A stretch of 64,000 nucleotides of DNA from positions 68,636,001 to 68,700,000 of the forward strand of contig CM059432.1 of assembly GCA_030390025.1 (NCBI GenBank). The letters are read 5' to 3'. The stretch comes from Squalus acanthias (taxonomy: Eukaryota). The notes below the pieces were generated by a model. It saw only the letters and a list, made by a program, of their open reading frames with translations. It was not told the origin of the DNA and did no database searches. A program made the translations under genes and the position numbers. How positions within the stretch are numbered: position 1 is the first letter of the stretch; every line of letters begins with the position of its first letter. Positions 24,301 to 27,300 of this stretch are shown piece after piece.

Positions 24301-27300
24301 TTGTTGAGGGAGATGGCTTATCAGGGGAAGACAGCACCAGCCAACTTCCTAGCACCGTAGGTGGTTCTGCTGCACAGGATGGGAGGAAAAAGAGTGGGAG
24401 AGCTATAGTGATAGGGGATTCTATTGTAAGGGGAATAGATAGGCGTTTCTGCGGCCGCAAACGAGACTCCAGGATGGTATGTTGCCTCCCTGGTGCAAGG
24501 GTCAAGGATGTCTCAGAGTGGCTACAGAGCATTTTAGAAGGGGAGGGTAAACAGCCAGTTGTCGTGGTGCATATAGGTACCAACGATATAGGTAAAAAAC
24601 GAGATGAGGTCCTAAAAGCAGAATACAGGGAGTTAGGAGGTAAATTAAAAAATAGGACCTCAAAAGGTAGTAATCTCAGGATTGCTACCAGTGCCACATG
24701 CTAGTCAGAGTAGAAATAGAAGGATATTTCAAATGAATACGTGGCTAGAGGAATGGTGCAAGGGGGAGGGATTCAAATTCCTGGGGCATTGGAACCGGTT
24801 CTGGGGGAGGTGGGACCAGTACAAACCAGACGGTCTACACCTGGGCAGGGCCAGGACCGATGTCCTGGGGGAGTGTTTGCTAGTGCTCTGGGGGAGGGTT
24901 TAAACTAAAATGGCAGGGGGTTGGGAACCTGAGCAGGGAGACAGAGGAAAGGGAAACAAGGATAAAAGCAAAAGATAGGAAGGAGGAAAACAAAAGTGGC
25001 AGTCAGAGAAAACAACGGTTTAAATCAAACATGGCCACAGTAAATACTAATTCTAATAGGTGTAAGAGCGTTAAAAAAACAAGCCTGAAGGCTTTGTGTC
25101 TTAATGCAAGGAGCATTCGGAACAAGGTGGATGAATTAGCTGCGCAAATAGAGGTAAACAAATATGATTTGATTGGGATTACCGAAACATGGCTCCAGGG
25201 TGGCCAAGGCTGGGAACTCAACATTCAGGAAAGATAGGCAAAAAGGAAAGGGAGGTGGGGTAGCATTGCTGGTTAAAGAGGGGATTAACACAATTGAAAG
25301 GAAGGATATTAGCTCTGATGATGTGGAATCTGTATGGGTTGAACTGAGAAATAACAAGGGGCAGAAAACGTTAGTGGGAGTGATATATAGACCTCCAAAC
25401 AGTAATGCAGAGGTTGGGGATGGCATTAAAAGGGAAATTAGAGAAGCATGCAATAAGGGCACAGCAGTCATCATGGGTGACTTTAATCTACATATAGATT
25501 GGGCTAACCAAATTAGTAACAATACTATGGAGGAGGAATTCCTGGAGTGTTTACGGGATGGTTTCCTGGACCAATATGTCGAGGAACCAACCAGAGATCA
25601 GGCCATCTTAGACTGGGTATTATGCAATGAGAAAGGATTAATTAGCAATCTTGTTGTGCGAGGCCCCTTGAGTCGGAGCGATCATAATATGATAGAATTC
25701 TTCATTAGGATAAAGAGTGAAGTAGTTGACTCAGAGACTAGGGTCCTGAATTTAAATAAAGGACATGATGTGGAGATGCCGGCGTTGGACTGGGGTGGAC
25801 AAAAATGAGAAGTCGCACAACACCAGGTTATAGTCCAACAGATTTATTTAATTTTACAAGCTTTCGGAGCGGTCGCTCCTTCGTCAGGTAAGTTAGCAAT
25901 GAGAGAATCTCCCAGAATTCACAATTTAAACCCAGACAAAATCTATTCACATTATTCGCTACAACAAAGAGCACAGCCAAGACAATGAGATGTGTCCCAG
26001 GGGGTCCAACGTGTCAAACCACCTGCTGGCTGCATATCCATGCAGACACTGAGACAACGTATGAACGGACACCGCGCAACAATCGCCAGGCAGGAGGGTT
26101 GCCTCCCAGTCGGGGAACACTTCAGCAGCCAGGGGCATTCAGCCTCGGATCTGCGGGTAAGCGTTCTCCAAGGCGGCCTTCGAGATACACGACAGCGCAA
26201 AATCATAGAGCAGAAACTGATAGCCAAGTTCCGCACTCATGAGGATGGCCTCAATCGCGATATCGGGTTCATGTCACGATACAGAACGTGACTTGACATC
26301 ATGGCCGGTCTTCCCAGGTGTTTTTTTGGGGTGTTTTTTTTTTTGTTTGTTTTTTTTTTTAAAAAGGCTAACACAAGAACACAAATTGACAGGATATGCA
26401 GCCAGCAGGTGGTTTGACACGTTGGACCCCCTGGGACACATCTCATTGTCTTGGCTGTGCTCTTTGTTGTAGCGAATAATGTGAATAGATTTTGTCTGGG
26501 TTTAAATTGTGAATTCTGGGAGATTCTCTCATTGCTAACTTACCTGACGAAGGAGCGACAGCTCCGAAAGCTTGTAAAATTAAATAAATCTGTTGGACTA
26601 TAACCTGGTGTTGTGCGACTTCTCATTTAAATAAAGGAAACTACGATGGTATGAGGTGCGAGTTGGGTAGGATTGATTGGGGAATGTCACTCAAAGGGTT
26701 GACAGTGGATAGGCAATGGCAAACATTCAAAGACTGCATGGACAAACTACAGAATTTGTTCATCCCAGTTCGGCATAAGAATAAAACAAAAAGGGTGACT
26801 CAACCGTGGCTAAGAAGGGAAATTAGGGATAGCATAAGATCCAAGGAGAGGGCATATAAATTGGCCAGAAAAAGCAGTAACCCTGAGGATTGGGAGCAGT
26901 TTAAGATTCAACAAAGGAGGACAAAGGGATTAATTAAGAAGGGGAAAATAGAATACGAGAGTAAGCTTGCAGGGAACATAAAAACTGACTGTAAAAGCTT
27001 TTATAGATATGTGAAGAGAAAAAGATTAGTGAAATCAAGCATAGGTCCCTTGCAGTCAGAATCAGGGGAACTTATAATGGGGAACAAAGAAATGTCAGAC
27101 CAATTAAATACATATTTTGGTTCTGTCTTCACAAAGGAGGACACAAATAACCTCCCAGAGATGTTGGGGAACATAGGGTCTGATGAAAGGGAAGAACTGA
27201 AAGAAATCAGTATTTGTAGGGAAATGGTGTTAGGGAAATTGAAGGCCGATAAATCCCCAGGGCCTGATAATCTACATCCTAGGGTACTTAAGGAAGTGGC

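Follow-up and report, generated by a model that had tools for sequence, protein, structure and literature searches.

An inverted, 5'-truncated Penelope-like element copy with predicted hammerhead motifs within a CR1 element of TCEA1 intron 5 in Squalus acanthias

Results

The host intron and its CR1 element

The analysed window is a stretch of 64,000 nucleotides from Squalus acanthias (contig CM059432.1, positions 68,636,001 to 68,700,000), and all positions below refer to it. On the minus strand it contains TFIIS exons of 106, 146, 57 and 155 nt, all with proper splice ends; the 155-nt exon scored 84.8 bits for TCEA1 versus 69.2 bits for TCEA2. The host intron lies between the 146-nt exon (29582-29437) and the 57-nt exon (17570-17514), and an insert within it is 2.8 kb and 8.2 kb away from them.

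17571..29436, minus strand: TCEA1 intron 5, 11,866 nt, bracketed by the 146-nt and 57-nt exons
23850..28792 (ends approximate), plus strand: CR1-type LINE with an esterase-like ORF1 and an endonuclease-RT ORF2, hosting the insert and split by it, identified by its open frame and Pfam matches

When the insert and one copy of its flanking duplication were removed, the CR1 flanks read in frame, with 700 open codons across the empty site, and the two halves matched Pfam Exo_endo_phos_2 and RVT_1. An earlier note on this DNA had placed the insert in TCEA1 intron 5 and had described it as interrupting the CR1 ORF2 reading; both statements were borne out, with the ordinal of the intron following human exon numbering. 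The intron after the 57-nt exon (17513 to 15855, minus strand) has the ends ATATCCTT and AC, which we take to be the signature of a minor-spliceosome (U12, AT-AC) intron.

Anatomy of the insert

The insert consists of two inverted arms around a coding fragment, arranged as follows.

25750..25763, plus strand: left target-site duplication ATTTAAATAAAGGA, 14/14 identical to the right copy
25764..25802, minus strand: 39-nt tail of the inverted copy; the same tail terminates a related copy at 17797-17945
25803..26039, minus strand: inverted arm with 3' UTR, hammerhead and post-hammerhead motif, sense to the TCEA1 pre-mRNA
26038..26039, plus strand: 2-nt microhomology at the inversion junction; the arm match stops at 26039 and family pieces diverge before 26038
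26040..26291, plus strand: C-terminal fragment of a Neptune-type GIY-YIG endonuclease, beginning after YIG, with its stop at 26289-26291
26292..26391, plus strand: 3' UTR with a T-rich tract, outside the cover of the inverted arm and lineage-restricted (depth in runs X1 and X2, about zero in X6)
26392..26628, plus strand: forward arm without tail, its final 4 nt common to arm and duplication
26591..26611, plus strand: conserved post-hammerhead motif, whose first 9 nt are able to pair with the tail
26625..26638, plus strand: right target-site duplication ATTTAAATAAAGGA, pairing with the left copy

The 14-bp duplication around an insert of about 860 bp, the 237-bp inverted arms with a single mismatch and the left arm longer by about 39 nt are all described in the earlier note, and we found each of them again. 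The arms are reverse-complementary across 237 nt, the sole mismatch (25871 versus 26560) lying in loop II. The additional length on the left is no oddity; it is the known tail of Penelope-like elements (PLEs), and would count 43 nt instead of 39 if the four ambiguous junction bases were assigned to the target. No palindrome is present at the inversion junction, where there are 2 nt of microhomology instead, and family pieces in runs X1, X2 and X6 depart from the window sequence before 26038 while keeping the coding frame for WYIGE. In the contigs of these runs, coding sequence ahead of the fragment occurs solely as short loose ends.

Elsewhere in the window there is a further near-perfect inverted pair, 51626-51717 and 52211-52302, of 92 nt with 97.8% identity and a spacing of about 500 nt.

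The endonuclease fragment and its family

The coding fragment is identical at 76 of 82 residues (93%) to the C-terminal end of the shark protein P0001, the best match among the 42 candidates, out of 95, that matched it; the nearest named protein matches belong to shark genera. P0001 has 643 aa and contains an RT domain (RVT_1), a CX4CXXC linker and a VVY..YIG endonuclease. Among 18 aligned family members, Pfam GIY-YIG was found in five and RVT_1 in four. The copy itself retains only the last 82-83 codons, with the GIY and YIG motifs missing. The inverted arm supplies the initial 17 codons of the open frame. Since it begins just downstream of YIG, the fragment searched alone had no Pfam GIY-YIG match (RVT_1 was likewise not matched) and is a dead fragment. 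A profile of the family alignment had no matches to PDB sequences at E up to 1. The GIY-YIG C-terminal ORF of the earlier note therefore stands as to family, by the identity to P0001 and the Pfam GIY-YIG matches of its relatives, but not as to a domain of its own.

Endonuclease-positive PLEs are defined by a CCHH motif, whose two cysteines lie between GIY and YIG, and by conserved R, H, E and N downstream (PMC8557442). The cysteines were found in the relatives, and R7, H27, H33, E57 and N72 are invariant and kept in the fragment. According to the same source, a CX2-5CxxC linker joining RT and endonuclease is diagnostic of Neptune or Nematis and rules out Penelope/Poseidon; Neptune and Poseidon both occur in vertebrates (bioRxiv 10.64898/2026.07.22.740005). 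The linker reads CHSNLCKTC in P0001 and is similar in P0015 and P0022; its region lies outside the truncated copy. On the basis of this linker in relatives, the parent is classed as a Neptune-type PLE. The parent ORF combines RT with a C-terminal GIY-YIG, and the locus has an inverted pLTR, a 30-40-bp tail at one end and a target duplication, which are the features of endonuclease-positive PLEs. The protein identity and this layout of arms, tail and duplication together support the earlier identification of a Penelope-like insertion.

Many shark gene models include the endonuclease tail (P0002, P0010, P0016, P0020 and others; XRCC5, PPP1R12A-like, FAM210B, septin 5a), by either exonisation or misannotation.

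Hammerhead motifs

A strict motif scan returned three matches in the window, compared with none across 60 simulated windows. The motifs of the two arms, and a hammerhead-like relic elsewhere, lie as follows.

25854..25891, minus strand: left minimal type I hammerhead motif, predicted cut after 25858
26540..26577, plus strand: right minimal type I hammerhead motif, predicted cut after 26573
54505, minus strand: relic resembling a hammerhead, from another repeat family; it has the TCEA1 sense and lies upstream of the 106-nt exon, with the palindrome ACGU and stem I down to 2 bp

In each arm the motif reads UUAC, CUGACGA, one extra A, a 5-bp stem II, GAAA-GC-UU and GUAA. It comprises CUGANGA, the extra base, stem II, GAAA, a palindromic stem III, UH and stem I, as in the minimal type I hammerheads of PLEs. 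The hammerhead with palindromic stem III proposed for each arm was recovered, and the motif gave the same plus-strand cleavage position, after 26573, that had been predicted before; the extra A, present in both arms, was absent from that description. In a monomer, stem III would be unable to form because A15.1-U16.1 would close only 2 nt. The search with Infernal-type hammerhead models proposed in the earlier note did not support the motif: Rfam covariance models gave no hammerhead match at E up to 1 in 24500-28000, nor at the gathering score across the window.

Across three sequences, those of the insert, of the copy at 17797-17945 and of the distant element L001 (below), 50 of 50 stem cells were paired, with one both-sided change in each of stems I and II. 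This covariation is suggestive only, since it involves three sequences and 54 of 500 shuffles scored as high. When two motifs were allowed to cofold freely, the active dimer was not the lowest-energy form in any of the three cases.

Other copies and sequencing runs

One further copy of the related elements lies in the same intron.

17797..17945, plus strand: second, related short copy with a hammerhead and the same tail, of a related subfamily, antisense to TCEA1

It begins about 20 nt before the hammerhead core, stops at the tail end and, read along the gene, precedes the exon 6 acceptor by 230 nt; a target duplication of at least 6 nt was not found around it. A distant element, L001, shares 63% protein identity, the same hammerhead core and the same downstream motif; at L001 978-1100 the hammerhead and post-hammerhead motif agree nearly letter for letter, and the remaining 3' UTR looks unrelated. 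Pattern scans for further copies returned none in metagenome contigs and none in viral contigs, and protein-profile scans gave one locus from 157 candidate stretches in metagenomes and 0 of 18 in viral contigs. Fifteen pattern matches in prokaryote genomes were attributed to chance, as none of them had an upstream hammerhead core.

Read depth was compared in four sequencing runs (of 21), with the compared region divided into 30 bins. Both runs of organism A gave cover in every one of the 30 bins, and the summed depth of the insert was of the same order as that of CR1, except in a filtered T-rich bin; this depth, which is not a copy number, suggests that the family is abundant. The run of organism B covered the ORF and tail but left five of 30 bins empty, all of them in the 3' UTR or arm, which indicates that the UTR is lineage-restricted. 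The empty CR1 joint 25749-26625, with its 14 shared letters, occurred in X1, X6 and X21 (three of the four runs); it was rejected as evidence of an empty allele, given that other (paralogous) CR1 copies give an identical joint.

Discussion

Origin of the inverted copy

We consider it very probable that the locus holds a 5'-truncated, non-coding copy of a Neptune-type PLE within the CR1 element of TCEA1 intron 5, that this copy likely arose when a single staggered cut was primed twice, and that its hammerheads would, by prediction, be silent in transcripts of the locus. The sequence comparisons show the anatomy, the link to the family and the absence of the catalytic motifs. For the remainder, the GIY-YIG endonuclease of the element would have placed one nick in each strand of A/T-rich DNA, with 14 nt between the two. 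With a 4-nt match to the template, the bottom-strand end would have primed at an inner start site, from which 589 nt were presumably copied, and the top-strand end would have primed at an outer site for a copy of 276 nt in which the 39-nt tail is included. Through the 2 nt of microhomology, the ends of the two cDNAs would then have been joined.

The Poseidon element of Anolis carolinensis, PAc (Frangieh 2024, PMC11167929), cuts and extends both target strands at A/T-rich sites, and its RT starts at two sites bounding the tail. The present locus has in common with PAc an A/T-rich target with ATT at the cut, a tail with two end points and the proposed use of both strands. In contrast to PAc, a Poseidon, the parent of the insert has the CX2-5CxxC linker of Neptune/Nematis, and PAc primes without homology, whereas a 4-nt template-target match exists here; given the homology-free priming of that system, this match may be due to chance in A/T-rich DNA. 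The hammerhead of the Poseidon element needs protein and is dispensable for insertion (PMC11167929).

The same element could also have produced the inversion by self-priming or template switching on one RNA, possibly antisense or tandem, instead of by two target-primed cDNAs. Self-priming on an antisense template is favoured for head-to-head Penelope repeats in rotifers (Arkhipova 2013, PMC3846280), and one tandem RNA with two pLTRs could likewise serve both primers. However, the self-priming model relies on palindromes at the junction, of which there is none here, and both insert ends coincide with the two end points of the family and are flanked by a clean duplication. We judge this route rather unlikely in comparison to two priming events at the target.

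Two further readings of the near-perfect inversion were considered, an artefact of the assembly or the library and an old insertion that gene conversion has homogenised. Inverted repeats are difficult to assemble (PMC8557442), and no contig piece bridging either CR1-PLE junction was present among the 24 pieces listed, with 88,920 more beyond the listing. Against these readings, the arms differ by one base, the left tail matches the natural end of another copy, and the perfect 14-bp duplication restores the CR1 frame. In run X1, moreover, none of 10 insert sites, versus 12 of 30 CR1 sites, differed from at least 85% of the family depth (among the sites listed, 40 of 73), a contrast that fits a younger insert within an older CR1. 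Either version is very improbable.

Age of the insertion

The single mismatch in 237 nt corresponds to a divergence of 0.42% (95% range 0.011-2.35%). At 7e-10, a mutation rate borrowed from the epaulette shark (PMC10587355), this gives an age of about 3 million generations (about 0.08-17 million). A single mismatch is a weak clock and could reflect a copying error or a template difference. The earlier proposal that near-identical arms indicate recent activity of the family agrees loosely with the 0.42%, but the range extends to 2.35% and up to about 17 million generations. Youth is better indicated by the perfect duplication, the UTR missing in organism B and the contrast between insert and CR1 sites in X1.

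Fate of the hammerheads in the host transcript

The arms lie head-to-head, and a polymerase on either strand therefore meets the antisense arm first; with this arm made first, the hammerhead would pair with it while emerging. Folding placed 37 of 38 hammerhead nucleotides in pairs with the other arm on both strands, as an equilibrium prediction whose model does not extend to proteins or nuclear kinetics. The arm duplex had a predicted energy of -462 kcal/mol, compared with about -11 for the hammerhead motif and about -20 for the modelled dimer, and in folding of the growing transcript 51-60 of the last 60 nt were paired to the first arm at all five lengths. The hammerheads are thus predicted to be buried in a hairpin and likely silenced. 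The intron would carry a 237-bp hairpin, which splicing would remove.

As an inverted pair yields no tandem dimer, neither hammerhead has a dimer partner in cis, and the dimeric cleavage through the palindromic stem III that the earlier note cites for PLEs lacks its tandem dimer here. The left motif does lie in the sense of the TCEA1 pre-mRNA, as had been noted; its orientation loses most of its interest with the predicted sequestration by the antisense arm transcribed before it.

An effect on the host could nevertheless be imagined, in which the sense hammerhead cuts the TCEA1 pre-mRNA, or the hairpin or a cryptic donor alters splicing. The left motif is intact, and self-cleaving ribozymes within introns can reportedly influence the genes that carry them, for example in Cpeb3 (PMC10919898). 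Furthermore, the antisense of the right hammerhead reads CAG/GTAAGT at 26546 (minus strand), the sole perfect MAG/GTRAGT donor consensus on the TCEA1 strand of the 11.9-kb intron. On the other side, full sequestration is predicted, and published monomers of minimal PLE hammerheads showed no cleavage in vitro (PMC4209133). A single other hammerhead-like motif in TCEA1 sense was found in the window, at 54505; its palindrome differs and its stem I has 2 bp. A cut in the TCEA1 pre-mRNA is considered unlikely on these grounds. The flanking exons are 2.8 kb and 8.2 kb away from the insert, and the run of a related organism lacks the arm-specific sequence, which is therefore not conserved. Of the readings discussed here, a host effect is the one that we least expect, marginally below artefact or gene conversion.

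Comparison with known elements

The insert is real but ordinary, its layout known from 2013-2021 and its ribozymes from 2014. A forward truncated copy with an adjacent inverted copy, a tail of 30-40 bp at one end and a short duplication has been described for PLEs (PMC8557442, PMC3846280), including inverted pLTRs with one-sided tails and 8-10-bp duplications (PMC3846280). The closest counterparts are Pen2a_Av and a Pen2 derivative in Adineta vaga (PMC3846280; scheme in PMC8557442), which also have head-to-head pLTR arms of about 200 bp with a tail of 30-40 bp on one arm. As described in PMC3846280, the A. vaga Pen2 units likewise have a short target duplication and are likewise inserted in another retrotransposon. 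Their duplications measure 8-10 bp versus 14 bp here, and their junctions contain a palindrome in place of the microhomology. Unlike these units, the present copy has a parent with a Neptune-type linker, and just 82 ORF codons are left.

The metazoan min-HHRs of PLEs (Cervera and De la Pena 2014, PMC4209133) have in common with the present motifs a 4-bp helix I, an extra base between 9 and 10.1, G10.1-C11.1 and the palindromic 15.2-16.2. Opposite-strand pairs 100-700 bp apart are described there, and the cores here lie at 25887 and 26544. Helix II has 5 bp here versus 7-8 bp in the Schistosoma min-HHR of the same paper. Sharks are not named in its results and discussion. Non-LTR retrozymes (bioRxiv 10.64898/2026.07.22.740005) also derive a type I hammerhead from a PLE pLTR and include dispersed monomers, about 42-44% of them intronic in Xenopus. 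A retrozyme was rejected for the present locus, as retrozymes are direct tandem repeats without an ORF, in contrast to inverted arms around an ORF fragment.

As one among many truncated PLE copies, the insert matters little by itself. Its value is that of a clean test case, in which the two junctions can be read to the base, as can the duplication and the empty site. It would be a natural substrate for the study of two-strand priming in Neptune, a clade for which the PLE literature surveyed contained no biochemistry.

A possible stem between the post-hammerhead motif and the tail

The first 9 nt of the post-hammerhead motif could form a 9-bp stem with the tail; at this locus, the left copy alone has the tail and allows this pairing (25840-25832 with 25791-25783). 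This 9-nt stretch pairs with the tail in all three sequences, with two one-sided changes and no both-sided change, and the inner end point is enclosed by the stem. Downstream of the cut site, folding gave z-scores short of significance (-0.3 to -1.1), and the best fold of the left copy uses an alternative helix that competes with the tail stem; for these reasons, the stem stays a lead. Neither the tail stem nor the antisense-first argument was found in the PLE literature surveyed, on searches that were not aimed at them and that covered sources other than subscription journals and supplements.

As a possible though doubtful extension, a conserved stem in Neptune RNA may set both RT starts, the inner in the U-rich loop that it closes and the outer just past it; the locus would preserve the trace of a single dimeric enzyme that started at both sites at once, with a head-to-head product that silences its own ribozymes and so is harmless in introns. 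If the stem between the post-hammerhead motif and the tail does set the start sites, the tail would be explained in a second clade. The tail of the inverted copy terminates in ATG (25764-25766, minus strand), a triplet that might serve as start codon for the following tandem unit.
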